From Fidelibacterota bacterium (GTDB taxonomy: Bacteria > Fidelibacterota > Marinisomatia > Marinisomatales > TCS55): 64,000 nt of DNA. A program made the position numbers and the translations under genes. Below, in pieces: positions 10,026 through 46,505 of the stretch (positions are counted from its first letter, which is position 1; every line of letters begins with the position of its first letter). Location of the stretch: contig JAPYRG010000003.1 in NCBI GenBank assembly GCA_029936965.1, forward strand, positions 31,417 to 95,416, given 5' to 3'. Under the pieces are notes generated by a model. That model saw only the letters and a program-made list of their open reading frames with translations. It did no database searches and was not told where the DNA came from.

Positions 10026-10868
10026 TTATCTCAGATAGATTATCTTACGAGTTTCACTAAAGGATGGTGTAACTAGTTTCACAAAATATACGCCAGTAGG
10101 AAACAGTGAGGCATTCCATTGCATACTGTGATACCCAGGAGAAAAATTATCTGATAGGAGATTATCTACTTTTTCACCTAATAGATTATAGACTGAAATA
10201 TTGGTAAAATTTTTCTCGGATAATTCAAAATTAATAGTGATAGAAGGATTAAAAGGATTAGGATAACAATTTTTAATTCTTGAATTACTAGGAATCAAAA
10301 CATCTGACAATGATAAAGTTGATAATTCAGATAATGAACTATTTAATACAGCTAAAAAATCATTACCAAATGGTGGCATAATATATCCACGAGAAGTATA
10401 AACAACTTTCATCTCATGATTAATTAATACATGATGGGGTACAGATCCTCTTGTGAACATATTACGTATATCGGAACTATTATCATCAACTATCGGGTAT
10501 GATACGCCAAATGATTCTTCCCAATCCTTGCATTCCATTGGCCCTCTCCATCCATTGCCTACTCCAATTGTCATTAAACCTAAATTAGAGAATTGTTCAG
10601 ATATTGTTTGAGTATAAGAGGCCTCAAGCTGACAGCTACGACTAGTCGGGTTAAAGAATATCAACCAAATAACAAAATAATCAGCATTATTTTCTGATCC
10701 ATTATAATCATATAAAAACATTGTTTGATTAATTTCAGTACATATTGTACCCGAAAAATCAGATACAGTATCTCCAACCTTATAGATCTGAGATGATAAT
10801 TCCGAGGCTATCTGTCCTGACAGAGTTGATACAATAAGTATAAATGATATAATTATTCTTTTATTCAT
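10026..10868 (-). CDS. Secreted TlpA/redoxin-like thioredoxin-fold protein with T9SS C-terminal sorting domain
   Basis: Signal peptide from the ATG at 10868 (MNKRIIISFILIV). The redoxin-like core has SRSC where CxxC is expected. The C-terminal about 80 aa, CYPNPFNPSITINFEL...GVYFVKL, is a typical T9SS CTD. Confidence 0.6.
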   Translation of the reverse strand: MNKRIIISFILIVSTLSGQIASELSSQIYKVGDTVSDFSGTICTEINQTMFLYDYNGSENNADYFVIWLIFFNPTSRSCQLEASYTQTISEQFSNLGLMTIGVGNGWRGPMECKDWEESFGVSYPIVDDNSSDIRNMFTRGSVPHHVLINHEMKVVYTSRGYIMPPFGNDFLAVLNSSLSELSTLSLSDVLIPSNSRIKNCYPNPFNPSITINFELSEKNFTNISVYNLLGEKVDNLLSDNFSPGYHSMQWNASLFPTGVYFVKLVTPSFSETRKIIYLR

Positions 10869-10960
10869 TTTATCGAATATTCTATGCTTTTTGCATTTAG
10901 AACATAATGTTACATCGAAAAACATAATGGAAAAAACAATTTTTTATTAATTGACGGAAT

Positions 10961-13591
10961 TTAAAAACCGATCTGTATTGAAACTGTGGGTGTGAAACCA
11001 AGCATTATTACATCCGTAGTAATAAAAGGATCAACAAATAAATTATATGATCTATGGCTAATATTTTTTCGATCGAATACATTAAATATTGATATTCCTA
11101 TATCTAGACTTTTTTCCATAAAATACATTGACCGATTTAAGCTTAGATCAATTCGTTGTACAATGGGTAATCTTTTGCTGTTTCTTGTGCCTGGTTCTGC
11201 TTGAAGTGTATAGTTGGCATTTTCATTTTCGCGAATCATAAGATTATTATTAGACGTAAATACGCGGCCAGAAGAAATAAGGCCTGTGATACTTAATGTC
11301 CATTTCCCTAGTGAACTAATTAAAACTGATTTTAGCTCATGCGTTCTATCGTGATCTGCAAGAAAAACCTCTCCCCCATTTAACTCTGGAAACTTAAACT
11401 GTATAGTTCCATAGTTATATGAAGCCCAACCATTCAATTTCCCATACTTTTTATGAAAAAATAATTCAAAACCGTTTGATTGTCCTGTTCCTTGAAAAAT
11501 CAAATTATTGCTTGATTCACTATACACATCAATAGGAAATACTAATTGTGAAAAGTCCGAAATATTACTTACAGTTTTATTGTATAAATCAAAACCAAAG
11601 AAAAAATCTGGAGTATTATATTCAAATCCAAAATTCTTCTGTATTGAGCTCATTGGTTCCATATATTTATTAGGAATTAGCCAAACAAACTTGCTTCCAT
11701 TAGTAATTACGTCATTACTAAATCTATTTAAGAATTGATGTGCTCGGCTCCCGGATACTTTTAAACTAAGCTGATTTGATAAGTGATAAGATGCAGTGAA
11801 TCTGGGGTCAAAGAATATTTTATTTCCTTTACTAAATTTTTCTGATCGCACACCAATTAATAGTTCAATATTTGATGAGACAACCCATCTATCTTGGATA
11901 TAACCTTCAATTAAATTTCCTTTAATCTTTTCATTAATAAAAATAATAGAATCGCCTAAATCCACAGAATAATCTGTTTTATAGATTGTTTTTGCTAATC
12001 CTACTTCGATCAAATGATTTTGTCTGTAATTATAAGTAAGATTAACTCTACATGTTTGATCTGTAATTTGATTTTTGTCCTGCGAAAGATAGACTGGAGT
12101 TGTAGAAGTATCTAGGCTCCAATAACTATTAAGTAAATGATTGCTTATGTACTTTATATTTGATAAAAATAATTGTGAAGTCACTTTTTCTGTCCATCGA
12201 TGCAACCATCTGCCAGATACTCCATTATTTCCCCATCTTGTTTTTTCTTTTGTCTTTACTTGATCAACTCCAATAGAATCTAATGGAAAGTCAAAATTCT
12301 TTTTTTCTCCTAAATAATCTTTACCCTCATAAAATGAAATTGAAATAATATCTTTTTTAGTAGGTAGATAAGTGAATTTTCCATTTATATCATAAAAGTA
12401 AAAATTTGGTAAATATTGTGACTCGTACGTTACAGAATCTGATGGCAATTCTGATCCAATATTTAAACCACTTCCTGAAATAAGAAAATCGTGAATTTTA
12501 TCATATAGTTTTGTTTGATATTTATCGGTAAATGATCGACGAGCAGAAAGAATAAAGCTACCACGTTTGGACAATGGTTGTTGATAAGTAAATCCTGCGC
12601 TTAGCATATTTGTAAATAAATCTAATTTCTGTTTTTTAGTGCTTCCAGATTTTCCAGTAATATCAATAATACTTGATATCCCTCCTCCAAATTTTGCTGG
12701 AAAACCACTTCTATATATCTGAACATCTTTTACTATGTTAGAATTAATTGAGCTAAAGAAACCAAAAAAATGATCTACTTGGTAAATTGTCATACCATCA
12801 AGTATGATACGATTTTGGTCAGGTGTTCCTCCGCGTATAAATAATCCTGCAAATCCTGAATTTCCCATTTGAATACCAGGTAATAACTGTAATGAGCGAA
12901 AAACATCTGATTCTCCAATATTGGGTAGATTTGTTATATGTCTTGGAGAAAATGCTAATTCTCCAAGATTTGTTGAACGTTGTAAAAACTCAATCTTTTC
13001 ACCAAAAATATTGATGGTCTCTATTCCTAGAATTTTTGGTATTATTTCAAAATAATTAACAGCATCAAAGTCATTATTAATAACCTTTAGAGGATGGTAT
13101 CCTATATATGAAATAATTAGTGTATCTGTTATGCCTATATTTCCAGAAATATTAAAGAAACCATATTCATCGCTCATTGTTCCCAAAGAACTATTTTTAA
13201 TATATATGTTAGCATGGGGTATATATTCACCGCTTTTGGCATCAATTATATAGCCAGATATAGTTTCATTTTTTCTATTATTAATTATTATATACTGATA
13301 TTTGTTTTTTTTCCAATCTAAAGAAGTATTATGTAAAAGAGATTTTATTGCTTCATCGCTATTACAATTATTACATATTGCATTGATATTTATATTGTTA
13401 ATTAATTGATCTCTATAAACTATATTCAAATCATATGTGGAAACCAAGGAATCAAGTGCCAGCTTTAATGGCTTATCAATAAACGAATAATTAATTATAG
13501 AATTTTGGCTGAATACTGATGAAATATTAAGGAATAATAATATTCCAATAATGTAAATAAAATTAGTAAAAGATGTATGTTTCCTCTTCAA
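10961..13591 (-). CDS. TonB-dependent receptor/transducer with N-terminal STN signalling domain
   Basis: 876 aa. STN-like region (KPLKLALDSLVSTYDLNIVYRDQL), CarboxypepD_reg-like segment (ISGYIIDAKSGEYIPHANIYI), plug (LPGIQ, LFIRGGTPDQNRIILDGMTIY) and barrel. It overlaps the FecR gene by 29 nt. Confidence 0.85.
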   Translation of the reverse strand: MKRKHTSFTNFIYIIGILLFLNISSVFSQNSIINYSFIDKPLKLALDSLVSTYDLNIVYRDQLINNININAICNNCNSDEAIKSLLHNTSLDWKKNKYQYIIINNRKNETISGYIIDAKSGEYIPHANIYIKNSSLGTMSDEYGFFNISGNIGITDTLIISYIGYHPLKVINNDFDAVNYFEIIPKILGIETINIFGEKIEFLQRSTNLGELAFSPRHITNLPNIGESDVFRSLQLLPGIQMGNSGFAGLFIRGGTPDQNRIILDGMTIYQVDHFFGFFSSINSNIVKDVQIYRSGFPAKFGGGISSIIDITGKSGSTKKQKLDLFTNMLSAGFTYQQPLSKRGSFILSARRSFTDKYQTKLYDKIHDFLISGSGLNIGSELPSDSVTYESQYLPNFYFYDINGKFTYLPTKKDIISISFYEGKDYLGEKKNFDFPLDSIGVDQVKTKEKTRWGNNGVSGRWLHRWTEKVTSQLFLSNIKYISNHLLNSYWSLDTSTTPVYLSQDKNQITDQTCRVNLTYNYRQNHLIEVGLAKTIYKTDYSVDLGDSIIFINEKIKGNLIEGYIQDRWVVSSNIELLIGVRSEKFSKGNKIFFDPRFTASYHLSNQLSLKVSGSRAHQFLNRFSNDVITNGSKFVWLIPNKYMEPMSSIQKNFGFEYNTPDFFFGFDLYNKTVSNISDFSQLVFPIDVYSESSNNLIFQGTGQSNGFELFFHKKYGKLNGWASYNYGTIQFKFPELNGGEVFLADHDRTHELKSVLISSLGKWTLSITGLISSGRVFTSNNNLMIRENENANYTLQAEPGTRNSKRLPIVQRIDLSLNRSMYFMEKSLDIGISIFNVFDRKNISHRSYNLFVDPFITTDVIMLGFTPTVSIQIGF

Positions 13592-14444
13592 ATCTATAAG
13601 ACCGTTGAGATAAGATGGCTAAAGTTGTTAATACTCCATCTAAATCTTTAGCATCAATTACACCAGTAATTGAAATACTATTTAATTGATTACTATCCAG
13701 TACAATATTCACATCAAATTTACGTTCAATTTGATTACATACAGTCTCAAGATTTGTTTTGTTTAGAATCAACTTATTATGAATCCATCCAGGATATTCA
13801 GGATGAGGAATCACTTGTGATGTAAGAGTTTGATTATCAATATAATGACCTTGTCTTACTATCACATCTTCTGGTTGTTTGTTTTCAATATTTGGATTAA
13901 AAGATACAGCGCCTTCGTTAACAACGACTTCAATCATATCATTCCTGGAGTTAATATTGAACTTTGTACCCAATACAGTAACAGAACCATGTCTTGTATT
14001 TACTATGAAAGGAGAAGTGCCTTTTTCTACTTGGAAATACCCTTCTCCAGTTAAAATAACGTTTCTAGTTTCTGAATTATAGTCTCTTCTATATTTTAAT
14101 GAGCTTTCTGCATTGATTGTTATGATTGTACCATCAGCTAAATTGAATTCTTTCTGGCTTCCTCTATCAGCATATACAGAAATATTATATATTTTATCAT
14201 AAATGGTTGGCGCTAATAAAAGAAAAACAAATAAAATTGTAAAAGCGTATACCAGTCTAGATTGCATAAAAGGAAATAATCGTCCAGATTGTATCTTAGA
14301 TGGAGCATTTTGTTCCATATCCAACCGTTGCTCCAAACGCATCCATGCATCTGAAGTATCGGGAGAATTATGCATCTTTAACTTCCTAGTTAATTCCCAA
14401 ATAACTTTTAAATCATCTGGTAATTTATTTTTAAATGTACTCAA
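13563..14444 (-). CDS. FecR family anti-sigma factor / sensor
   Basis: 293 aa with a single TM segment (LVYAFTILFVFLLLAP). The FecR-like periplasmic domain reads LADGTIITINAESSLKY...VILTGEGYFQV...VNTRHGSVTVLGTKFNI. Confidence 0.8.
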   Translation of the reverse strand: MSTFKNKLPDDLKVIWELTRKLKMHNSPDTSDAWMRLEQRLDMEQNAPSKIQSGRLFPFMQSRLVYAFTILFVFLLLAPTIYDKIYNISVYADRGSQKEFNLADGTIITINAESSLKYRRDYNSETRNVILTGEGYFQVEKGTSPFIVNTRHGSVTVLGTKFNINSRNDMIEVVVNEGAVSFNPNIENKQPEDVIVRQGHYIDNQTLTSQVIPHPEYPGWIHNKLILNKTNLETVCNQIERKFDVNIVLDSNQLNSISITGVIDAKDLDGVLTTLAILSQRSYRFEEETYIFY

Positions 14445-14519
14445 CGGATTCCTCTGCGAATATTTTTAATATATTTTTTCCATTCACTAAATATATAACG
14501 ATCATATTTCAATAATTAC

Positions 14520-15065
14520 TTACAAATAATCCTTTAATTTTGAACGTAATACTTTTAACGCTCTATACAGTTGATTCTCAACAGTGCGGCGTGAAACCTC
14601 TAATAATTCTGCTATATCTTGATTTGCCAAGCCATTAACTCTGCTTAAAATAAATATTTCTCTACATTTCTCAGGTAAGCTATTATTAACAATGCTATGA
14701 ATTTTATCTTCTAAAATTTTTGATTCATATTGTATAGCTGGATTATCAACACCTGACTGCGTTAGCTGGGGTATATGTTCCTGATGTCGTAGTTTCACCT
14801 TTTCGTGTCGAAAATAATCCATACAAAGATTATTACTAATTTTTGCAATATAGGAAAAAAAAGACTGATTTGGTTTTATGCTATTTCTATGTTTCCATAC
14901 ACGAAGAAATGTATCCTGTACAATATCATCAGCAATCACTTCGTCCTTTACTCTATATAATACGAAATTAAATAATGATTGATGGTATTTTGTAAATAAA
15001 TCACGTAATGAATTCTTGTCAGATTTTTTTAAACAACTAAGTAGCTTTTGATCCTTGTTTGGCAT
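14520..15065 (-). CDS. ECF-type RNA polymerase sigma-70 factor
   Basis: 181 aa. Region 2 (DDIVQDTFLRVW) and a region 4 HTH (LANQDIAELLEVSRRTVENQLYRA). Confidence 0.85.
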   Translation of the reverse strand: MPNKDQKLLSCLKKSDKNSLRDLFTKYHQSLFNFVLYRVKDEVIADDIVQDTFLRVWKHRNSIKPNQSFFSYIAKISNNLCMDYFRHEKVKLRHQEHIPQLTQSGVDNPAIQYESKILEDKIHSIVNNSLPEKCREIFILSRVNGLANQDIAELLEVSRRTVENQLYRALKVLRSKLKDYL

Positions 15066-24058: not shown

Positions 24059-25150
24059 ATGCCCCTTGTTCCTTCATATATAAAACAATTATCAAGCTAC
24101 AAACCTGGCGCTAATATTGATGATATAAAAATAGAAAAATCATTAAAAAATGTAATTAAACTTGCATCAAATGAAAATTCTATGGGCCCATCTCCGCTAG
24201 CAATATCAGCAATAAATAAAGGATTGAAAAAGATTAATCGTTATCCTGATGCAGCTGGAAAAAAACTTCGCAAAAAGCTAGCTAATAAATTTGATGTTAA
24301 AGCTGAAAATGTAATAATTGGTTCGGGTTCAGAAGGGATATTGTCAAATATATTAAGAACCTTTTTATTAACGGATGATCAGATTATTGGATCTGCAAAT
24401 TCTTTTATTGGATTCCGCGTCTTAGCTACAGCTACTGGAAGAAAAATAAATTGGGTTGAAATGAAAAATCACAAAATAGATCTTGAAGGGATAAAAAGTC
24501 ATATTAATGATTATACAAAAATTATATACATAGCAAATCCAGATAACCCTATGGGAACATATATAACCAATAAAGAATTTGATGAATTTTATGAACATGT
24601 CCCAGAACGGGTATTAGTGATACTTGATGAGGCATATTTTGAATATGCAGATCATTTAAATGATTATCCAAACTCAATGACATATAGATATGATAACGTT
24701 ATTACACTTAGAACATTTTCCAAAGCATATGGTCTTGCGGGATTAAGAATTGGTTATGGATTCTCTCATGAAACCTTAATTAATAATTTGTTAAAAGTAA
24801 AAGTCCCTTTCGAACCATCTCGTCTTGCACAAATTGCAGGTTTAGTAGCTTTAGATGATACTGAATTCATGAATAAAACAATTAAACTAAATAAAATAGA
24901 GAAAGATAAAATAGAATTAAAACTAGATAAATTGAATATAAAACGTATCCCCTCCGCAACTAATTTTATAACAACTTATTGGGGTTCCGAAAACAATGCT
25001 AAAGAAATAACAGAAAAAATATTAGATAAAGGAATCATTTTAAGACATTTGGCATCTTTTGGTTGGCCAGAATATGTAAGGATATCTATTGGTTTAAAAG
25101 ATGAAAACGAATTTTTTATTAAAACTCTAGAAGAAATTATTTTATTATGA
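24059..25150 (+). CDS. Class II PLP aminotransferase (HisC-like; by context probably the tyrosine/aromatic aminotransferase)
   Basis: 363 aa. KLASNENSMGPSP, ANPDNPMG and TFSKAYGLAGLRIGY (PLP lysine). The stop overlaps the hppD start (ATGA). Confidence 0.85.
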   Translation: MPLVPSYIKQLSSYKPGANIDDIKIEKSLKNVIKLASNENSMGPSPLAISAINKGLKKINRYPDAAGKKLRKKLANKFDVKAENVIIGSGSEGILSNILRTFLLTDDQIIGSANSFIGFRVLATATGRKINWVEMKNHKIDLEGIKSHINDYTKIIYIANPDNPMGTYITNKEFDEFYEHVPERVLVILDEAYFEYADHLNDYPNSMTYRYDNVITLRTFSKAYGLAGLRIGYGFSHETLINNLLKVKVPFEPSRLAQIAGLVALDDTEFMNKTIKLNKIEKDKIELKLDKLNIKRIPSATNFITTYWGSENNAKEITEKILDKGIILRHLASFGWPEYVRISIGLKDENEFFIKTLEEIILL

Positions 25151-26235
25151 ATAGTTATAAAATAGATGGGTTTGATTATTGTGAATTATATGTTAGTAAT
25201 GCAAAACAAGCAGCCCACTTTTATCATAGTACTTTTGGTTTTTACCCAATAGCATATTGTGGCTTAGAGACTGGATCAAGAGATCGAGTAAGTTATGTAT
25301 TAAAACAAAATCAAATTAAATTTTTACTTACATCCCCTTTAAATAATAATTCGGAAATCAGTAAACATATTTATAATCATGGAGATGGTGTAAAAGATGT
25401 ATCATTTACAGTTAATGATGCTGAAGCAGCATGGAAAGAAAGCATTGAGCGTGGAGCTGAAAGTGTTAGAAAACCTCATTTATTATCGGATGAAAAAGGG
25501 GAGGCGATAATTGCTACTATTAAAGCTTTTGGTGACACGAGCCATACTTTTGTTCAAAGGAATAATTATAATGGGGTTTTCTTACCAGGGTATGATGTTT
25601 TTGAAAATAATCTAACAGGTGATCCTTCAGGACTTATACATATTGATCATATCGTTGGCAATCAGCCAAATGGTGAAATGCAGACTGTATGCAATTTTTA
25701 TGAAAAAGTTTTTGGATGGCATCGATTTTGGACTGTTGATGATAAGGATATATCTACAGAGTTCTCAGCTCTAAGATCAATAGTGATGGCAAATGATAAT
25801 GAAAAAATTAAAATGCCTATAAATGAGCCTGCTGATGGATTAAGGAAATCGCAAATACAAGAGTTTATAGATTACTATAATAGTCCAGGAATTCAGCATA
25901 TTGCAATGACGACTAAAGATATCATTAATACAGTTTCAAAGCTAAGAGATAAAGGTGTTCAATTCTTAGAAACACCAAAAACCTACTATGAATCTTTAAC
26001 TGAACGTATTGGAGAGATAGATGAAGATTTAGATCAAATTGAAGATCTAGGGATATTAGTAGATAAAGATGAAAAAGGATATATGCTCCAAATATTCACT
26101 AAACCTATACAAGATAGACCCACGCTTTTTTATGAAATAATTCAAAGAAAAGGATCAAATAGTTTTGGTAAAGGAAACTTTAAAGCTCTTTTTGAATCCA
26201 TAGAAAATGAACAGAAAATTCGTGGTAATTTATAG
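25147..26235 (+). CDS. hppD: 4-hydroxyphenylpyruvate dioxygenase
   Basis: 362 aa. Two VOC modules, GIQHIAMTT, and the C-terminal FYEIIQRKG...FGKGNFKALFESIE signature. Confidence 0.9.
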   Translation: MNSYKIDGFDYCELYVSNAKQAAHFYHSTFGFYPIAYCGLETGSRDRVSYVLKQNQIKFLLTSPLNNNSEISKHIYNHGDGVKDVSFTVNDAEAAWKESIERGAESVRKPHLLSDEKGEAIIATIKAFGDTSHTFVQRNNYNGVFLPGYDVFENNLTGDPSGLIHIDHIVGNQPNGEMQTVCNFYEKVFGWHRFWTVDDKDISTEFSALRSIVMANDNEKIKMPINEPADGLRKSQIQEFIDYYNSPGIQHIAMTTKDIINTVSKLRDKGVQFLETPKTYYESLTERIGEIDEDLDQIEDLGILVDKDEKGYMLQIFTKPIQDRPTLFYEIIQRKGSNSFGKGNFKALFESIENEQKIRGNL

Positions 26236-26268
26236 TAAATAAATCACATAGGATTCTTGTAAAATAAT

Positions 26269-27252
26269 ATGAAATTCGCTACATACACAACTTTTAGAGG
26301 TGAAAAAACCCGATTTGGTTTTATAATAGAAGATAAAATAATAGATATTATGAGATCATCTATCTGGATGAATGAACATAAAAAAGATTCATCTTTTCTT
26401 TCTATCCCAACTACATTAAAACTTGCTTTAAATAAATGGAATGAAAATTTTGATAAACTAATTAAGCTTAAAGAAAACATTTCAGATTTAGACCATTCAG
26501 AATTACAAATTAATGGAAAGTCAATATCAATTAATTTAAATGATGTGCATCTCCTCCCTCCTGTGCCAAACCCTACGTCTTTTAGGGATTTTTATGCATT
26601 TGAACAACATGTGAAAGCAGCAAGAAAGCTACGGGGTCTTGATATGAATCCAGATTGGTATAGAATACCAATCTTTTATTTTTCTAATATAACTTCTATA
26701 TATGGACACAAAGAAGAAATTCCATACCCAAAAGAAACGAAAGAATTAGATTTCGAATTAGAGTTAGCAATTATAATTGCTAATGGTGGAAAAAATATAG
26801 ATAAAAAAGATGCAGAAAAGTTTATTGCAGGTTATACAATATTAAATGATTGGTCTGCAAGAGACTTACAACGTGAAGAGATGCAAATGAATCTTGGACC
26901 TGCAAAAGGTAAAGATTTCGCAAATAGTTTTGGTCCCTTTATGGTCACACCTGATGAATTAAAAAATAATTGGGAAAATGATAAGATGAATCTCAGAATG
27001 ACATGTTATTTAAATGATAATTTAATTTCTGATGGTAACACAAATGATCTTTATCATTCTTTTTCTTCTATGATACAACGAGCAAGCATGAATGTTGATT
27101 TGAAAGCAGGAGATTATATTGGTTCCGGAACTGTAGGTACTGGATGTATACTGGAATTAAGACCTGAGTCTACAGGTGGCTGGTTAAAAAAAGGTGATAC
27201 TATACGTCTAGAGATTGATAATATAGGCGTACTAGAAAATACAATTATATAA
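26269..27252 (+). CDS. Fumarylacetoacetate hydrolase (FAH) family protein, short form
   Basis: 327 aa. The FAH-fold C-terminal domain (ELDFELELAIII..., GYTILNDWSARDLQ, GDYIGSGTVGTG) is smaller than canonical FahA. Confidence 0.8.
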   Translation: MKFATYTTFRGEKTRFGFIIEDKIIDIMRSSIWMNEHKKDSSFLSIPTTLKLALNKWNENFDKLIKLKENISDLDHSELQINGKSISINLNDVHLLPPVPNPTSFRDFYAFEQHVKAARKLRGLDMNPDWYRIPIFYFSNITSIYGHKEEIPYPKETKELDFELELAIIIANGGKNIDKKDAEKFIAGYTILNDWSARDLQREEMQMNLGPAKGKDFANSFGPFMVTPDELKNNWENDKMNLRMTCYLNDNLISDGNTNDLYHSFSSMIQRASMNVDLKAGDYIGSGTVGTGCILELRPESTGGWLKKGDTIRLEIDNIGVLENTII

Positions 27253-27256
27253 TACT

Positions 27257-28402
27257 ATGCCTTTTTATCAACAACAAGGGGAAGTACCAAATAAAAGACA
27301 CATTCAATTTCGAGATAATAATGAAAGTCTTTACTACGAAGAATTAATAAGCCGAAAAGGCTTCAGCTCATTATATTCTAATGCGTATCACATCAATCCT
27401 CCAACAGCAGTCAATAAAGTTGGTAAATATCAAAAAATAAAAAAAGATCCATTAGATTCGACACACAGGCATTACCATATAAAATCATTTGACTTAAAAT
27501 CCTCAGGTGATGCAATAAATGCAAGACTGTCACTTTTTTATAATGATGATGTAGAATTATCAATTGCTAAGATTGATAAATCAATGAATGCTCTTTATCG
27601 TAATGGGCATAATGATGAAATCATATTTATACAAAGTGGATCTGGGAGATTTTATTCCAACTTTGGCAATATGGATTTGATTAAAGGAGATTACATTGTC
27701 ATTCCTAGAGGCGTGATATGGAAAATGGAAGTTGATGAAAAAATGAACCAATTTATTATTGAAACAAATGGGCCAGTTGAAACACCAACAAATTATCGAA
27801 ATAGTCATGGGCAATTATTAGAACATTCTCCGTACTCAGAAAGAGATATACGTACTCCACAATTGGATAAACCAATCAATGACAGCCCTTGCGCGATCAA
27901 AACAAAACTAAATGGTAGATACCAAGACTATGAATATGTTTATCATCCTTTTGATATTATAGGTTGGGATGGTTGCTATTATCCCTGGATATTAAATATT
28001 AAAGATTTTATGCCAATAACTGGAAAGATACATCAACCGCCACCAGTGCATCAGACTTTTCAAGCTCCAGGATTAGTTGTCTGTTCATTTGTTCCTAGAA
28101 TTTTTGATTATCATCCTGAAGCTATACCAGCACCATATGCCCATAGTAATATTGATTCAGATGAGGTTTTATTTTATTCTGCAGGAGAATTCATGAGTAG
28201 AAATAATATTGAAGAAGGATCAATAACGTTTCATCCTAGCGGACTTCCTCATGGTCCCCACCCAGGAAAGATTGAAGAATCAATAGGAAAAGATAAAACT
28301 AATGAGCTTGCAGTTATGGTTGATACATTTAAACCATTATCTATTTCTTCTTTAGCGAAAGAAGCTGATGATGAAGAATATCCGATGTCTTGGAAAATAT
28401 GA
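27257..28402 (+). CDS. hmgA: Homogentisate 1,2-dioxygenase
   Basis: 381 aa. PYAHSNIDSDEVLFY...ITFHPSGLPHGPHPG matches the HGD metal-site region. Confidence 0.85.
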   Translation: MPFYQQQGEVPNKRHIQFRDNNESLYYEELISRKGFSSLYSNAYHINPPTAVNKVGKYQKIKKDPLDSTHRHYHIKSFDLKSSGDAINARLSLFYNDDVELSIAKIDKSMNALYRNGHNDEIIFIQSGSGRFYSNFGNMDLIKGDYIVIPRGVIWKMEVDEKMNQFIIETNGPVETPTNYRNSHGQLLEHSPYSERDIRTPQLDKPINDSPCAIKTKLNGRYQDYEYVYHPFDIIGWDGCYYPWILNIKDFMPITGKIHQPPPVHQTFQAPGLVVCSFVPRIFDYHPEAIPAPYAHSNIDSDEVLFYSAGEFMSRNNIEEGSITFHPSGLPHGPHPGKIEESIGKDKTNELAVMVDTFKPLSISSLAKEADDEEYPMSWKI

Positions 28403-39693: not shown

Positions 39694-40440
39694 ATGAATT
39701 TGCCATTGTATTTTATTTCAGATATTCATCTTATGGATGAAACGTCAGATAATTATCATCAAATCAGCAAAAATCTGGAGAATTTCTTTAATCATATATC
39801 TAGCACTGGAGGAACGCTATTTATTAATGGAGATCTATTTGACTTTTATTTTGAATATAAGGATGTGATTCCAAAAAAATATTTTTCTCTATATAACCAA
39901 TTGTACACACTAAAAAATACAGGTGTTGAAATTCATTATATACTGGGAAATCATGATTATTGGGTAATGGATTTTATTGAAAAACAAATAACAACAAAAA
40001 CATATCGCGATGATGTTACTCTGGAATTAAATGGTAAAAAATTCTACATTTCACATGGCGATGGATATCTTTCATGGGATCATGGTTATCGATTTTTGAA
40101 ATATATAATTCAAAGTAAATTATTTACTTGGACATACAGATGGATTCATCCAAACATAGGCTATCGAATTGGTAATTGGATGTCTAAAAAGGGTAAACAT
40201 TATGATCATTCTAAAGAATACAATGAACGGGTTCTTGATGAAATGACTACATTAGCACATAAAAAGATTCGTCAAGGATTTGATTATCTCATTTTAGGCC
40301 ATTATCATCAGGCGGTTGATAAATCAGTAGAAAATGGAAAATTACTTATTTTAGGTGATTGGCTTACCTTTTTTACTTATGGTTATTTTGATGGGAATGA
40401 ACTCTCACTTTTGAGATGGAGAGAAGATGACCGTTCTTAA
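39694..40440 (+). CDS. lpxH: UDP-2,3-diacylglucosamine diphosphatase (LpxH-type metallophosphoesterase)
   Basis: 248 aa. SDIHL, NGDLFDF, GNHD and GH motifs in calcineurin-like order. Confidence 0.7.
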   Translation: MNLPLYFISDIHLMDETSDNYHQISKNLENFFNHISSTGGTLFINGDLFDFYFEYKDVIPKKYFSLYNQLYTLKNTGVEIHYILGNHDYWVMDFIEKQITTKTYRDDVTLELNGKKFYISHGDGYLSWDHGYRFLKYIIQSKLFTWTYRWIHPNIGYRIGNWMSKKGKHYDHSKEYNERVLDEMTTLAHKKIRQGFDYLILGHYHQAVDKSVENGKLLILGDWLTFFTYGYFDGNELSLLRWREDDRS

Positions 40441-41566
40441 ACATACGACTATAATTCTCTTCGCTTTATTTATTTTTAGCAGTTGTTCATTGATAAAGAA
40501 AATTTTCCCAGGAGATGACAAGGAAGCGCCTGGAGTAACTTTTGAATTAATCGATAAGCTAAGAATTGCATATGAAGACGGCCGAATTCAAGCGTTAGAA
40601 GAATTAATTTCAATATATAATGATAGTAGCCTACCATTTGAAGCAAGAATAGAAGCTGGCCGAGTTTTAGGAGAATCTCAACACCCCACAGCCCTTAATG
40701 CTATAGCTCAAGCCGTTGCAAGTGGAGCCGCTCTGGATATTACATTTATGGAAGAATCAATAAAGTTATTAGCAAAATTTAGAGAAAATCCAAAAGCAGC
40801 CGAAGCAATGATCCAGGGGATGGAAAATATTGAATTAAAAACAAACAGTTTGCATATGACTTTAGTTAGAAGTTTGAATAAGATACGTGTGGAAGATCAG
40901 GTGTTAGCTTTACTCGATTTATATGAAATTGCTCATGCGAATGTAGAACGTACAGATTTATTATTAGCTGAGACTTTAGGAGCTATAGGAACGGAAGAAG
41001 TTGTTCCTATTTTAGTTGGTATAGCAAAAAATACTAGCATAAAAATTGGAGTTAGAAATCGTGCGGTTGAAATACTTGGTAAGAAAGATCCTGCCGATGT
41101 TGCTAATGCGTTTGCTGAATTATTAGATGATCCTGCAACTAATCTTGAAGTCCGAGAATTTGCACTAAAGACGATGAAAGGAGTTAGGCAGGAGAATCTA
41201 GTCCTAGCTTTATTAAATACATATAATGCTGGAAGAGGGGAGTATTATAGTCTTTTAAATACACTGTTAGAAGCCCTAGGAAATTTTGATGATCCTCAAG
41301 TATTTAAAGCCATTATAGAGATAGGATTAACTGAAGATTTACCCCTTGATTTAAGAAAAAAAGCTATAGAAAGTCTAGGTGGGTTAAATAATCCAAATGT
41401 TATTCCCCGGTTTTTGCCATTATTAGGAGATGCAAAAAATTATACTTTGCATGGATCCATAATTCAAATGATAGGTCGACTTGGACAACAAGATACCTAT
41501 CATGAAGAATTGCGTCGATTAGCTTTTTCAGCACATATGAAAGAGAGTCAATATCTTGTACCATAA
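40427..41566 (+). CDS. HEAT (PBS-lyase-type) repeat lipoprotein
   Basis: 379 aa. Signal peptide with lipobox FSSC. Repeated ARxxAxxxLGxxxxPxA-type units occur (EARIEAGRVLGESQHPTAL, VRNRAVEILGKKDPADV, LRKKAIESLGGLNNPNV). It overlaps lpxH by 14 nt. Confidence 0.6.
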   Translation: MTVLKHTTIILFALFIFSSCSLIKKIFPGDDKEAPGVTFELIDKLRIAYEDGRIQALEELISIYNDSSLPFEARIEAGRVLGESQHPTALNAIAQAVASGAALDITFMEESIKLLAKFRENPKAAEAMIQGMENIELKTNSLHMTLVRSLNKIRVEDQVLALLDLYEIAHANVERTDLLLAETLGAIGTEEVVPILVGIAKNTSIKIGVRNRAVEILGKKDPADVANAFAELLDDPATNLEVREFALKTMKGVRQENLVLALLNTYNAGRGEYYSLLNTLLEALGNFDDPQVFKAIIEIGLTEDLPLDLRKKAIESLGGLNNPNVIPRFLPLLGDAKNYTLHGSIIQMIGRLGQQDTYHEELRRLAFSAHMKESQYLVP

Positions 41567-42380
41567 AAAGATATTCTTCTTAATTATTATTAATCTTTTA
41601 ATTGGTCAAGACACTACTAAAATAGATAATAATATGATGGAAATATCAGATAATGGAAAAAATGGCGCTGATTCAACTAATACAAGTATACTTGACACTT
41701 CTCTAACTCCCATTCCAAAGCTACGAGACGATAAGGATACATTGTCTCTCCTCCCTTTGGGGAAACCATTTTTTAATTATGATACAGATATAAAACAATT
41801 GCAAAACCAAATTGATTCACTCGGAGCGATGGTTAGTCTACTTCAAAAATTTCAGGCTATGCCTACTTTAAATCAAGATATAATCAATTTAATTAAAGTT
41901 CCTGATATGCAGCATAGAATAGAATTGACAAATGGAACTGTAGTTATGGGTGAAATAATTGATGAGAATTCAGATGCATTATTTATTCAGACAACGCTTG
42001 GACGTTTAGCCATCACAAAAGATAAAGTTGTTTCAGTGCAACAGGAGCTTCCTCCTGGTCCAAAAGTTGAAATGGTGGGGGAACCAAATGTAAATGTTTT
42101 TCTAGATCGAGAAGAAATTATTGGTACAGTTATAAATAGCGGAGAAATAAGAGCTGATTTTGTACGAACTGAAGCAAAACTATGGTCACCTTCTACTGAA
42201 CTGATTGTTATCGATTCCGCATTTGTAGATGGAAATATAATAACATATAAATCTGGTGTAATTAGCGATACTTCACTTAAACCAGGAGAAACTGCTAATT
42301 TTAAAATAATAATTCAAAAGCCAAGTGTTCCAGAAGTTGGATATAGAACCTATGCTATCCGTTGGGCTCGCACATTTTGA
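41556..42380 (+). CDS. Secreted hypothetical protein (coiled-coil + small beta domains)
   Basis: 274 aa. A TTG start keeps the signal peptide (YHKKIFFLIIINLLIG). It overlaps the HEAT gene by 11 nt. No family is recognised. Confidence 0.45.
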   Translation: MYHKKIFFLIIINLLIGQDTTKIDNNMMEISDNGKNGADSTNTSILDTSLTPIPKLRDDKDTLSLLPLGKPFFNYDTDIKQLQNQIDSLGAMVSLLQKFQAMPTLNQDIINLIKVPDMQHRIELTNGTVVMGEIIDENSDALFIQTTLGRLAITKDKVVSVQQELPPGPKVEMVGEPNVNVFLDREEIIGTVINSGEIRADFVRTEAKLWSPSTELIVIDSAFVDGNIITYKSGVISDTSLKPGETANFKIIIQKPSVPEVGYRTYAIRWARTF

Positions 42381-42590
42381 TATTTATTTTATTGTATAAA
42401 AATAACATATAAAATAATCTAACTAACTTCCATCTTCATTCATTTCCTATTTTTATATAAATTATAGGCAATAACTTGTATTTCCTTCGTATTATTAATA
42501 TTTTCAAGTGATATTTTTAATCATATGCTTATATATGATTAAAAACTGACAATAACCGAGGTAAAAAAGGAAAATTTACAGGAGTAATCT

Positions 42591-42929
42591 ATGTCTGACC
42601 CTATGAGTAATATTGAGGGAGATATCCGTGTAAATGGTACTTTATCATGCGATGGAGACCTAATTATAGATGGACAATTAGAAGGCGAATTATCTGTAAA
42701 AGGAAATCTGACTATTACAGAAATTGGTGATGTTGGCGCAGATACTGTAGCTTCCAAATTAACAGTAGCTGGAAAACTAAAGGGTAAAGTCAGTGCTGAA
42801 AAAGGAGTCTTAATAAAGTCAACTGCGAGCGTTTTAGGGCCAATTGAAACTAATCAAATTATTATTGAAGATGGTGCTGATTATTCAGGTACAATTAATA
42901 TGAATGTAGAATTGCCAAAAGACGTATAA
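42591..42929 (+). CDS. Bactofilin (DUF583) paralog 1
   Basis: 112 aa with the bactofilin beta-helix repeat pattern (IEGDIRVNGTLSCDGDLIIDGQLEGELSV...IIIEDGADYSGTINM). AGGAG lies 7 nt upstream of the ATG. Confidence 0.85.
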   Translation: MSDPMSNIEGDIRVNGTLSCDGDLIIDGQLEGELSVKGNLTITEIGDVGADTVASKLTVAGKLKGKVSAEKGVLIKSTASVLGPIETNQIIIEDGADYSGTINMNVELPKDV

Positions 42930-42953
42930 AAATTTGAGAGGTAATATATAATT

Positions 42954-43268
42954 ATGCCAAAAACAACTATTGGAAAATCATTATTCCTTGATGGGGAATT
43001 ATCAGGAATAGACGGTTTAGTTATTGAAGGAAAAATTAATGGTAGGATTGAAGTAGGTGGCGCAATATCTGTTGAAAAAGGATCAGTTGTTAAAGCTGAT
43101 ATCAAGGCCAATAATGTGAAAATTTCAGGAGAAGTAAAAGGGAATATTACCTCAACAGGTAATGTCCATTATATGGAGGACTGTTCTGTAACTGGGGATA
43201 CAACAACATCAAGGATTCTTATTGAAGATGGTGCAACTATAAAAGGCAGTGTGCACATTGATATTTAA
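42954..43268 (+). CDS. Bactofilin (DUF583) paralog 2
   Basis: 104 aa. LDGELSGIDGLVIEGKINGRIEV...ILIEDGATIKGSVHI. Confidence 0.85.
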   Translation: MPKTTIGKSLFLDGELSGIDGLVIEGKINGRIEVGGAISVEKGSVVKADIKANNVKISGEVKGNITSTGNVHYMEDCSVTGDTTTSRILIEDGATIKGSVHIDI

Positions 43269-43281
43269 TAATGGTAGTTAA

Positions 43282-43680
43282 ATGAACAAAAAAGTTCAAC
43301 AAAATATAACAACCTTACATAAAGATATTTCTTTTAATGGAAAGTTAATTGGAGATGAAAGAATTATTATCTCTGGCCAAATGGAAGGAAACCTACAAAC
43401 ATCTCAAGATTTGACTATAGAAAAATCAGGGATTGTAAAAGCAGATATAAAATCTTCAAATCTTGTTTTAAGTGGGATCTTAGTTGGAAATATTGATTCA
43501 AAAGGTGTCGTGACCATTACCAAATCAGGGCGAATGATTGGAGATATTAAATCTGAGAATATTATTATAAATGCAGGCGCTCAATACAAAGGTACTATTT
43601 TAACTAAAGCAAGTTCTAAATTAAATAGCCCGAATAAAGAATCTCCTAGAAAAAACTCTAGATTAAAAACTAAACGTTAA
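43282..43680 (+). CDS. Bactofilin (DUF583) paralog 3 with basic C-terminal tail
   Basis: 132 aa. FNGKLIGDERIIISGQMEGNL...IIINAGAQYKGTI, then the tail KASSKLNSPNKESPRKNSRLKTKR. Confidence 0.85.
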   Translation: MNKKVQQNITTLHKDISFNGKLIGDERIIISGQMEGNLQTSQDLTIEKSGIVKADIKSSNLVLSGILVGNIDSKGVVTITKSGRMIGDIKSENIIINAGAQYKGTILTKASSKLNSPNKESPRKNSRLKTKR

Positions 43681-43792
43681 CATCTATGCAGGGTGCTCAC
43701 CCCTACTAACCTTGCAATTATATATTATATTGTATGATTTCAATAAATTGTATTATTATCAGAAATAAAGGGTTAATTAGCTTAATATAATT

Positions 43793-45601
43793 ATGATAAG
43801 TCTTATACTTTCTGAAAATCATATTCATTATGCTCAATGGGAAACTATAGCTGGATCACAATCGATTGATCTGGTTGGATCTCTTCCATTAAAAACTCCT
43901 CTTTCAGAATTCAAACCTGGCACTGAAGAGTTTACTGCTATGCTAGGTACTGAATTTAGCAAACTTTCCATGCATATCGATATGGTAGGTAAAGAAATTA
44001 TACTAACAATTCCTGATTGGATTGTACATCAAGAATTTATTACCCTAGATAAAGATTTAATTGCTCCAGAGACAAGACAATATCTTGAATGGATATCTGA
44101 AAACAGATGGGGTGGTAAAGCGTCTTATTTTAATACATTAGGTTACTGGGTCAAATCTGATAAATTGGATAAGAATTACGTTCGAAAAACATTGATTCCT
44201 TCAAATGTAGTGGGAACTTTAAAACTAACTATAGCTGAACAAGGAGCTAAGCCTACATGGATGGGGACAAACTCAGAAGCTTTATTAAACGCGCAGGAAA
44301 AAGGTGATATTATATTAGTTAAATCTTCTGGTTTATCTTATGAGTTATTTTATCGATATAAACAAGAAGTTGGTTGGGCCAAAATACGATTTATTAAAAA
44401 TGTTCCTCATATTCAATCAATTAGAGGTCGTAAACGTTCAATAAATACTTTATTAAAACGGTTAGACCTGTATATAAGTGGTGAGTCAGATTGGCTTGGT
44501 TATGATATAGCTTATATTAATCAACTTAGCGCAGGAAGAAGAAAATACTGGGAAAGAAATGAAGAACACGCTGATTCCCCAATGCTTCAACCCTTTGATA
44601 GAGTAAAAATTAAAGGCGAAGTATCTTTTGAAAACCTATCAGTCCTTCACTTAAATGTTCTTACTTCAATTATAGGAACAATTGATAAGCTTCCATTAAT
44701 TAATTTATTTAACGAGCCTGGAATCACTCAATATGAAGAAGGTATGGATATACCTCAGATACAATCGGAAAAAGATAGTAAAGATTATAGTGGTGATATT
44801 GATCCACAAGATAATAATAAAGAAGATTCTAAGATTAAAGAATCAGTTGTTCACAGCTCAATGCTAACATGGATATTATTTACAATTGCTATGGCAGCCT
44901 TCGCATATTGGATCTTTTCTAAAGAATACCCGCAAACAATTAATTATAGAGATCATATTCTAAAATTATCAAAAGAATCTTATTCAATGGCAAATTCAGC
45001 TAACACTATTATTGATGCAATTCCAGATAGCTCATTAATAGAAGTAAAAGTTGTGAATATGATATTACATTTAGAAATGGTAAAGACTGATACGCTTAAT
45101 CCAGTTTCATTTGTCAACGGAAATGAAATATCTTTCTATCAAGATGAAGTATCATGTTGCGGCGGTACAAAACATATTTATGATTATATTTTATATCCAA
45201 ATGATCAAAAAGCTGATAAAAATTGGTTAACAATTGAAGATTTAAAAATAATCTTCGAAGATTATCCAATGGATACAGAAATAGAAGATTTATCAATGAT
45301 AAATCGGAATTTTTTAGTTTTTGATAGATTAAGAATTAAGGCAAATAGTAAAGACGATTTAATTAGAGCCTTAGAACTTTCCACAAATTTAAGTGAAAAT
45401 ATTCTTTTAAGAAAAATTGTGATTACAAATAACCCTGAAAACCCTAGAGTTAATGGAAAACTATATATTGCAGTTATAAAAGAACCTTCATCAGGATTCT
45501 GGGTTTTTAATATTCAGAATACTATAAAAGATATTAAAAATTTGATTATGAATATTAATTTACAGTCTATAGTAAATAAATTTAAGCAGAGCTTTGGTTA
45601 A
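43793..45601 (+). CDS. Hypothetical bitopic membrane protein (cytoplasmic N-domain of about 340 aa, acidic linker, one TM, C-terminal domain of about 220 aa)
   Basis: 602 aa. The single TM is LTWILFTIAMAAFAYWIF, preceded by the acidic EKDSKDYSGDIDPQDNNKEDSKIKE. It is the last gene of the bactofilin string. No motif is recognised with confidence. Confidence 0.55.
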   Translation: MISLILSENHIHYAQWETIAGSQSIDLVGSLPLKTPLSEFKPGTEEFTAMLGTEFSKLSMHIDMVGKEIILTIPDWIVHQEFITLDKDLIAPETRQYLEWISENRWGGKASYFNTLGYWVKSDKLDKNYVRKTLIPSNVVGTLKLTIAEQGAKPTWMGTNSEALLNAQEKGDIILVKSSGLSYELFYRYKQEVGWAKIRFIKNVPHIQSIRGRKRSINTLLKRLDLYISGESDWLGYDIAYINQLSAGRRKYWERNEEHADSPMLQPFDRVKIKGEVSFENLSVLHLNVLTSIIGTIDKLPLINLFNEPGITQYEEGMDIPQIQSEKDSKDYSGDIDPQDNNKEDSKIKESVVHSSMLTWILFTIAMAAFAYWIFSKEYPQTINYRDHILKLSKESYSMANSANTIIDAIPDSSLIEVKVVNMILHLEMVKTDTLNPVSFVNGNEISFYQDEVSCCGGTKHIYDYILYPNDQKADKNWLTIEDLKIIFEDYPMDTEIEDLSMINRNFLVFDRLRIKANSKDDLIRALELSTNLSENILLRKIVITNNPENPRVNGKLYIAVIKEPSSGFWVFNIQNTIKDIKNLIMNINLQSIVNKFKQSFG

Positions 45602-46505
45602 GTAATGTAACCATAATTGCATTTTGGATATGTAGACGATTTTCTGCCTGATCAAACACAATTGAATACTCAGCTTCCATTACTTCATCTGTTACTTCTC
45701 TACCTCGCTCTGCTGGCAAACAATGCATAAAAAGGGCTTTTTTTCCAGCTTCTGATATAATAGAGTGATTTATTTGAAAAGGTTTAAATACGCTTTCTCT
45801 AATCTCTGCTTCATCTTTTTGACCCATAGATGCCCAAACATCAGTATAAACAACATCTGAATTTTGAATTGAATCAAAAGGATCGTTTGTTACAGTAATT
45901 TTTGATAATCCGGTCTCAATTGACTTATCTAGAGTGCTATTATCAGGCTCATAACCAGCTGGACATGCACAAACAAAATCAATTGGAAATTTTTGTGTCA
46001 GCTGTAGCCATGAATTAACAATATTGTTGCCATCACCAATATAACTGATTTTCAAATCATCCAATGACCCTCTTGTCTCCCAAATAGTAAAAAAGTCACA
46101 CATTATTTGGCAAGGATGGTTATAATCTGTTAAACCATTAATAACAGGAATGCTTGCATTACTCGCAAGCTCCATTATATGATTATGATCAAATAATCTA
46201 GCCATAATTAAATCATTATATCGGCTTAATAATCTTCCAATATCTTTTATAGCCTCTCTTTTACCAATTCCAATATCGTTAGGTCCAAGAAATAGTGCAT
46301 GTCCACCTAGCCATTCAAATCCAGTCTCAAATGATATTCTCGTTCTTGCTGAAGGTTTAGCAAATATCATAGCAAGAGATTTATTATGAAATATTTTATG
46401 ATCTTCTCGATTTCGAAATTTTTGTTTCAAATCTTTTGCTAGTTTCATTATCTCCATTAATTCATCAGATGAATAATCACCAATATGTAAAAAATTATTA
46501 TTCAC
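45582..46505 (-). CDS. argF: Ornithine carbamoyltransferase
   Basis: 307 aa. SARTRISFE, HPCQ, DVWASMG and HCLPAERG motifs. Confidence 0.85.
   Translation of the reverse strand: MNNNFLHIGDYSSDELMEIMKLAKDLKQKFRNREDHKIFHNKSLAMIFAKPSARTRISFETGFEWLGGHALFLGPNDIGIGKREAIKDIGRLLSRYNDLIMARLFDHNHIMELASNASIPVINGLTDYNHPCQIMCDFFTIWETRGSLDDLKISYIGDGNNIVNSWLQLTQKFPIDFVCACPAGYEPDNSTLDKSIETGLSKITVTNDPFDSIQNSDVVYTDVWASMGQKDEAEIRESVFKPFQINHSIISEAGKKALFMHCLPAERGREVTDEVMEAEYSIVFDQAENRLHIQNAIMVTLLNQSSA

Follow-up and report, generated by a model that had tools for sequence, protein, structure and literature searches.

A predicted GspL-like membrane protein family of Marinimicrobia/Fidelibacterota, encoded beside a pilin-like gene across the phylum and behind three bactofilin genes in one clade

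Proteins of the GspL/PulL/EpsL type are bitopic, with an actin-like cytoplasmic domain devoid of nucleotide-binding motifs, one transmembrane (TM) helix, and a periplasmic helix with alpha-beta-beta units; GspL has about 390 amino acids (aa) and is encoded beside a small bitopic partner, GspM, whose gene lies downstream. A natural fusion of PilM, which binds ATP, with PilN is found in MshI of MSHA pili. As separate proteins, PilM and PilN add up to that same order, one domain before and one after a TM helix (PMC10191384, PMC3815138). FtsA belongs to the same branch of the actin-like fold and tethers a cytoskeletal polymer to the membrane; it binds ATP and has a C-terminal amphipathic helix. 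For bactofilins, membrane partners are also described, and in Myxococcus the gene padC lies in an operon with the three bactofilin genes bacN, bacO and bacP. PadC attaches to the basic tail at the C-terminus of BacP, and in Caulobacter the bitopic PbpC, whose cytoplasmic N-terminal region binds a bactofilin, can take the place of the bactofilin membrane-targeting sequence (PMC12448750). In this study we analyzed a stretch of 64,000 nucleotides (nt) from a Fidelibacterota bacterium (contig JAPYRG010000003.1, positions 31,417 to 95,416; hereafter the window, in whose numbering the coordinates are given), where a gene for a 602-aa membrane protein follows three bactofilin genes. Literature searches on bactofilin with PilM, and on Marinimicrobia with bactofilin or type IV pili, returned nothing describing this locus.

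The results make us moderately confident that the 602-aa protein is a divergent docking scaffold of the inner membrane resembling GspL or a PilM-PilN fusion, that the ancestral partner of its family, kept almost everywhere, is pilin-like, and that its placement behind bactofilin genes is a lineage-specific rearrangement. The protein, encoded by the open reading frame (ORF) at 43793..45601 on the forward strand, matches no Pfam or NCBIfam family and contains one strongly hydrophobic segment, with the Kyte-Doolittle maximum of 1.89 at aa 357-375. An AlphaFold2 (AF2) model built on a family alignment of 36 sequences (A2) places the single TM helix at aa 357-376 (44861..44920). The mean predicted local distance difference test score (pLDDT) of this model is 83.6 and both globular parts are mostly above 90 (aa 1-315 mostly above 85, aa 390-560 mostly above 90); a first model from a shallow alignment of the close clade (A1) reached a pLDDT of 31 and was discarded. 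In the A2 model, aa 1-315 (43793..44737) form two beta-beta-beta-alpha-beta-alpha-beta lobes and are predicted to be a cytoplasmic, actin-like domain of the PilM/GspL/FtsA type, while aa 316-356 (44738..44860) make up an acidic juxtamembrane linker that is disordered, with pLDDT below 50 for aa 316-355. In the predicted periplasmic region, aa 377-602 (44921..45601 with the stop codon), a long helix (385-409) is followed by four strands that form a beta insert and include a conserved CCGG (aa 455-458), then by an alpha-beta-beta-alpha-beta-beta unit (481-562), with two helices at the C-terminus. Judged solely by this predicted secondary-structure topology, the C-terminal domain would be ferredoxin-like, of the PilN/PilO/GspM type.

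When the model was compared with the PDB by Foldseek (TM-scores normalised to the target), PilM structures came out at the top and every match named here had a probability of 1.00. PilM of P. aeruginosa (5eou_B and related) was matched with E 6.5e-11 and TM-scores of 0.44-0.54, and PilM of T. thermophilus (2ych_A) with E 4.2e-8 and a TM-score of 0.49. The cytoplasmic domains of GspL/EpsL/PulL (4pht_Y, 1yf5, 1w97, 5tkw) gave E from 1.4e-8 to 8.9e-7 and TM-scores of 0.52-0.63, the best structural coverage being that of the GspL domain 4pht_Y (E 1.4e-8, TM-score 0.63), and FtsA (including 1e4f) gave E from 5.8e-8 to 1e-6 with TM-scores of 0.28-0.39. In the family alignment neither the DxG of phosphate-1 or phosphate-2 nor the GGG of the adenosine motif is conserved, a pattern which suggests that the N-domain binds no nucleotide; because these motifs are missing, the protein is in this respect closer to GspL than to PilM or FtsA. 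In fold as well as in architecture, the predicted layout, with one domain in the cytoplasm, a TM helix and one domain in the periplasm, agrees with GspL or a PilM-PilN fusion, although the protein differs from GspL in its greater length, its bigger N-domain and the extra beta insert with CCGG. The original prediction, made from the letters of the window and its ORFs, had described such a bitopic protein with an acidic linker and had seen in its N-terminal region a loose resemblance to a degenerate PilM/GspL domain lacking DxG; hydrophobicity and the AF2 model agree with the former, and Foldseek and the motif check with the latter at the level of fold. A weak match of the A1 profile to an OAA/myxobacterial hemagglutinin (MBHA) lectin repeat among the PDB sequences (aa 100-162, window 44090-44278; E 0.0014) was centred on the motif ENRWGG, whose Trp100 is invariant in the family. 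With the deeper A2 profile the match was gone, and the confident model has helix and strands belonging to the actin-like lobe in this region, so the match was rejected and is treated as chance.

Word-seeded homolog searches gave only relatives at 65% identity or above, the names of near-identical database proteins assigning the window to a marine Candidatus Neomarinimicrobiota (Marinimicrobia/SAR406) genome, and with the alignments A2 and A3 they returned the close clade only, or one distant protein. When 1.84 billion cluster representatives were searched exhaustively with an HMMER profile, 53 proteins reached E of at most 1e-3. Some 40 of these are full-length, with 540-670 aa, and many can be aligned with the window protein over its whole length; identity to it is 16-23%. 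All named sources are Marinimicrobia, Neomarinimicrobiota or Fidelibacterota, and the family is small and fast-evolving and appears to be restricted to Marinimicrobia/Fidelibacterota. The original prediction had called the protein an orphan, which stands as far as Pfam and NCBIfam are concerned and fails in that the protein belongs to this small phylum-wide family. Against the canonical members, that is, those from the loci without linked bactofilin described below, the window copy has a mean identity of 18.7%, compared with a median of 19.3% among the canonical members themselves; these values speak more for an ordinary copy of the lineage than for a hyper-divergent paralog, and prove nothing. 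The region following the TM helix is 227 aa long in the window protein versus a family mean of 220 aa, and a clade-specific C-terminal extension, which we had considered, is not supported. As the stretch preceding the TM helix is basic in most homologs (canonical mean +4.9), the N-terminus is probably cytoplasmic across the family; in the window protein the last 40 aa before the helix have a net charge of -5, and the stretch is acidic in about 17% of canonical members as well.

The gene neighbourhood of the family was surveyed in two sets of loci. All nine metagenomic distant homologs share one conserved block without bactofilin, which upstream of the homolog contains genes for a tricorn-like protease, DUF5683, BamD, FtsE, FtsX, HrcA, GrpE, DnaJ, a ComEA-like HHH_3 protein and a partner of about 250 aa, and downstream those for RsmD, CoaD, Icd, Obg and DprA. 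For the second set, one genome per GTDB species was scanned with the partner as query, since it is better conserved than the homolog; 111 species genomes were found and 80 loci were kept, labelled Marinimicrobia, Neomarinimicrobiota, Fidelibacterota or "uncultured bacterium" with the exception of one Winogradskyella bin. That bin, a metagenome-assembled genome labelled Winogradskyella sp. (L076, CAXRJK010000135.1), carries the Marinimicrobia-type order of dnaJ, pilin-like gene and homolog, and the contig is probably mis-binned. In 80 of the 80 loci the homolog starts a few nt after the partner on the same strand (for example L013:9971-12499; the module occurs in L013-L092), and the gene directly upstream of the pair is ComEA-like in 55 of 74 loci and dnaJ in 18 of the other 19. 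A bactofilin-like ORF lies within 10 kb in one of the 80, at L042:16245-16703 (E 4e-9), about 3.7 kb downstream and not adjacent, so that 88 of the 89 canonical loci (80 GTDB and nine metagenomic) have no bactofilin within that distance. The check proposed along with the original prediction, whether homologs always follow bactofilin genes, hence comes out negative: in 80/80 and 9/9 loci they follow the pilin-like partner instead. In L030 (10768-12638), L039 (10767-12514) and L107 (956-2753) two overlapping ORFs take the place of a single homolog ORF, a sign of a frameshift or of faulty assembly, and in L052 and L056 (both 10751-11914) its ORF is only about 388 aa long; these split or short homologs may be pseudogenes or truncated variants.

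The partner owes its description to its N-terminus, which in 63 loci shows a basic stretch followed by S/T-D-L-L-E-L-x-I-V...I-Y-V-P. Numbered from the Ser/Thr, Glu5 and Pro22 are conserved in these loci, the latter in the canonical, helix-kinking position of pilins. Glu5 is a hallmark of the alpha1-N helix of type IV pilins (PMC10191384), and in an hhalign comparison with E. coli GspG the N-terminal stretch lines up in register, with Glu5 against Glu5 and Pro22 against Pro22 (P = 0.016). The only thematically consistent NCBIfam matches of the partner are to PilA, ComGF and ComGE, far below threshold. From these sequence features we call the partner pilin-like, probably uncleaved, and not a demonstrated pilin. 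Together, the bitopic pilin-like protein and the GspL-like homolog make up a two-gene module outside any recognisable pilus or secretion operon. The title of a paper cited as reference 85 in PMC10191384 has PilMNOP interacting with the pilin PilA, which parallels the pilin-like neighbour here. Like GspL, the homolog is encoded beside a small bitopic partner; unlike GspM, this partner is pilin-like and its gene lies upstream.

The window and its close relatives have a different arrangement. Three tandem bactofilin genes precede the 602-aa gene on the same strand, as had been predicted with the sizes and gaps found here: bactofilin 1 (112 aa, 42591..42929), bactofilin 2 (104 aa, 42954..43268) and bactofilin 3 (132 aa, 43282..43680), separated by 24 and 13 nt and followed, after a gap of 112 nt, by the 602-aa gene. 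In the three relatives L001-L003 (75-85% identity) bactofilins lie directly upstream in 3/3, and among 18 further metagenomic loci (74-97% identity) they do so in all 17 that have upstream sequence. When the window bactofilins were searched by tblastn against the homolog loci, matches were obtained only in those of the close clade, L001-L003. No pilin-like gene occurs within 7-10 kb in the loci of this clade, and tblastn finds no partner homolog in the whole 64-kb window. The window has none of the block genes in common with the canonical loci, those for the ComEA-like protein and DprA included; its tricorn-like protein is only 21-24% identical to theirs, and its lineage lies far from all 80 GTDB loci. 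There are thus two mutually exclusive arrangements, partner and homolog nearly throughout the phylum, and three bactofilins and homolog in one narrow clade. A bactofilin-anchoring scaffold, as had been proposed from the window, does not hold at the family level given the 88 canonical loci without bactofilin, and retains in its favour an adjacency that is fully conserved within the narrow clade. Co-occurrence with bactofilins, which for a bactofilin adaptor should be broad, was found for the 602-aa family only in the clade of 74-100% identity. On this comparison of loci, anchoring of bactofilins is not a property of the family and is a possibility for the window's clade only.

As to the bactofilins themselves, the three small ORFs score 74.3-75.9 bits against Pfam PF04519 (Bactofilin, DUF583; gathering cut-off 27.9) and span 95-97 of its 98 profile positions, with E 3e-21 for residues 8-102 of bactofilin 1, E 3.3e-21 for residues 4-100 of bactofilin 2 and E 9.6e-21 for residues 10-106 of bactofilin 3. 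Their N-termini read MSDPMSN, MPKTTIGK and MNKKVQQ, and by inspection against the consensus in PMC12448750 none of the three has a membrane-targeting sequence of the MFSKKKK type, which is typical of the family and not obligatory. The C-terminal tail of bactofilin 3 (aa ~108-132) is basic and rich in Lys, Arg and Ser, a likeness to BacP, the bactofilin bound by PadC. Neither PadC nor PbpC, the latter a PBP1A-type synthase, is related to the 602-aa protein in sequence or fold, and the 602-aa family as a whole is unlinked to bactofilins.

The gap between bactofilin 3 and the 602-aa gene (43681..43792) contains a conserved inverted repeat, TGCAGGGT (43687-43694) and ACCTTGCA (43709-43716), which starts 7 nt past the bactofilin-3 stop codon and has a conserved TTGCAAT...TATATT stretch downstream of it. 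Across the clade the gap is about 105-112 nt long, and the repeat is kept in 10 sequence variants. The repeat has no U-tract and no intrinsic-terminator-like site was found in 42300-45800; a terminator uncoupling the 602-aa gene from the bactofilins, which the original prediction had named as counting against it, was thus not seen. Folding of the gap as RNA is insignificant (z-score -0.46) and none of the 8 predicted pairs in the repeat has compensatory changes. A terminator or an RNA structure in the gap is therefore not supported, and the element could serve as operator or promoter or mark a site of RNA processing.

On the other side of the 602-aa gene lies argF, for ornithine carbamoyltransferase (45582..46505 on the reverse strand; PF00185 E 2e-54, PF02729 E 3e-44), which converges on it as predicted, overlaps its 3' end by 20 nt, and sets the 3' limit of the gene string. 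Upstream, 210 nt separate bactofilin 1 from a co-directional trio with overlapping ends (39694-42380), made up of a metallophosphoesterase (39694-40440), a HEAT-repeat protein (40427-41566) and a 274-aa protein with a signal-peptide-like N-terminus (41556-42380), all on the forward strand; the order of this trio before the bactofilins is also kept in the relative L002. The 274-aa protein has a sub-threshold match to the Leptospira LA_3334 family (E 5e-6), and as a counterpart of the pilin-like partner it was rejected (BLASTP E 1.0). Elsewhere in the window, a run of aminotransferase, 4-hydroxyphenylpyruvate dioxygenase-like, fumarylacetoacetate hydrolase and homogentisate dioxygenase-like genes at 24059-28402 looks like a cluster for tyrosine/homogentisate catabolism. 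At 10961-15065, on the reverse strand, an extracytoplasmic function (ECF) sigma factor, a FecR-like anti-sigma factor and a TonB-dependent receptor with a CarboxypepD_reg domain stand in a row, a trans-envelope signalling unit in the typical FCB (Fibrobacteres-Chlorobi-Bacteroidetes) form.

The scaffold is probably a platform for docking across the membrane, as GspL and PilM-PilN are. With its actin-like domain it would keep a cytoplasmic partner at the membrane, and in the envelope the TM helix, the periplasmic helix and the alpha-beta-beta units would pair with the pilin-like, bitopic partner. Within the window's clade, the adjacent partner would have been lost and the gene would have come to stand behind the three bactofilin genes; most likely the 602-aa protein keeps the family role there and the bactofilins form a separate unit. 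Several results weigh against this reading. At the sequence level no likeness to GspL, GspM, PilM, PilN or PilO was found: the protein matches neither PF05134 and PF12693 of GspL nor PF11104 and PF05137 of PilM-PilN, Pfam being blank for 36 family members, the A2 family profile found nothing among the PDB sequences, and hhalign gave probabilities of at most 0.4% against E. coli GspL (0.1-0.2%), GspM, GspC, HofM, HofN, HofO and HofP. The partner has no Gly at position -1 for prepilin peptidase (Y, H, R, K, N or T in the 63 loci) and reaches the threshold of no N_methyl/pilin model, its Pfam result likewise being blank. The 10-kb flanks of the 80 canonical loci lack homologs of E. coli GspC, D, E, F, G, H, I, J, K, L, M and O and of HofQ, M, N and O, and type IV filament genes (those for ATPase, platform, secretin, prepilin peptidase and pseudopilins) are absent from the 64-kb window. 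The family thus stands outside a gsp operon, no pilO, pilP or pilQ follows the 602-aa gene, and with no core type IV filament gene near the homologs no machine is identified for the scaffold to serve. Finally, bactofilins and the 602-aa gene share one strand with no terminator predicted between them, and their adjacency is kept in all 20 relatives' loci with upstream sequence, features that fit a functional coupling to the bactofilins as well.

Such a coupling is what a clade-specific tether would mean, in which the scaffold has been re-purposed in a SAR406 clade so that it anchors a three-bactofilin polymer to the inner membrane and couples it to the periplasm, comparable to FtsA-FtsZ; we regard this as unlikely though tenable. 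Besides the strand and the adjacency in the 20 loci and the window, it can draw on the upstream slot, which is filled by the partner in all other lineages and by bactofilins here, and on the absence of an MFSKKKK-like sequence from all three bactofilins, given that membrane-bound clients can replace that sequence (PMC12448750). FtsA, a tether of filaments, is among the structural relatives, and the acidic linker could complement the basic tail of bactofilin 3; about one canonical member in six, however, has an acidic linker too, with no bactofilin neighbour. Moreover, the linkage is limited to 74-100% identity, and in so narrow a clade synteny is expected from common descent alone, so the conserved order weighs little. 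The gap of 112 nt with its conserved element, which may carry a promoter or processing site of its own, contrasts with the 13-24 nt between the bactofilins and counts for a separate unit.

It is also conceivable, and we think quite improbable, that the family serves DNA uptake, forming with the pilin-like partner and the ComEA-like protein a minimal periplasmic DNA-receptor/pseudopilus module from which the window copy was relocated. The frequent ComEA-like HHH_3 gene next to the pair (E 8e-25), a dprA about 4 kb downstream in many loci, and the fact that the partner's sub-threshold matches are to PilA and the competence pilins ComGF and ComGE point that way. Yet the ComEA-like gene is missing in 19 of 74 loci, with dnaJ abutting the pair, the block otherwise consists of housekeeping genes (hrcA-grpE-dnaJ, rsmD-coaD-icd-obg) in which the proximity of dprA may be incidental, no ComEC, PilB, PilC or PilQ homolog lies nearby, and the window has neither a ComEA-like nor a DprA homolog. 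We give very little credence to an FtsA-like adaptor of the divisome or elongasome unconnected to type IV filaments, which would dock FtsZ, MreB or another cytoskeletal element while its periplasmic domain contacts the cell-wall machinery. The Foldseek matches to FtsA are significant and ftsE-ftsX lies a few kb upstream in the canonical block, but the structural coverage is much poorer than for PilM or GspL, the ATP-binding motifs retained by FtsA are absent, the anchor is a TM helix with a large periplasmic domain rather than an amphipathic helix, and the conserved pilin-like partner would be left unexplained.

With the divergent scaffold as the preferred reading, what is new is a sequence-novel, phylum-restricted GspL-like family in a stand-alone module, with one clade that has an unusual neighbour; the fold and layout are already known. 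A predicted fold and architecture can now be given to a protein family that is unannotated in Pfam and NCBIfam and occurs in 111 or more species-level genomes of Marinimicrobia/Fidelibacterota, a phylum abundant in the ocean and for the most part uncultured, and its two-gene module raises the question of what role a GspL-like platform has outside a pilus or secretion operon. As the adjacency to bactofilins is clade-specific, it cannot name a general family of bactofilin adaptors and leaves one candidate partner swap, in which, within one marine SAR406 clade, a scaffold normally found with a pilin-like subunit now anchors a bactofilin polymer and links it to the periplasm. This swap is tentative and in our judgement unlikely; if true, it would be a natural re-use of a type IV filament platform protein as a cytoskeleton tether, convergent with FtsA-FtsZ, and would provide the first dedicated trans-membrane bactofilin anchor with a fold of the GspL/PilM-PilN type.

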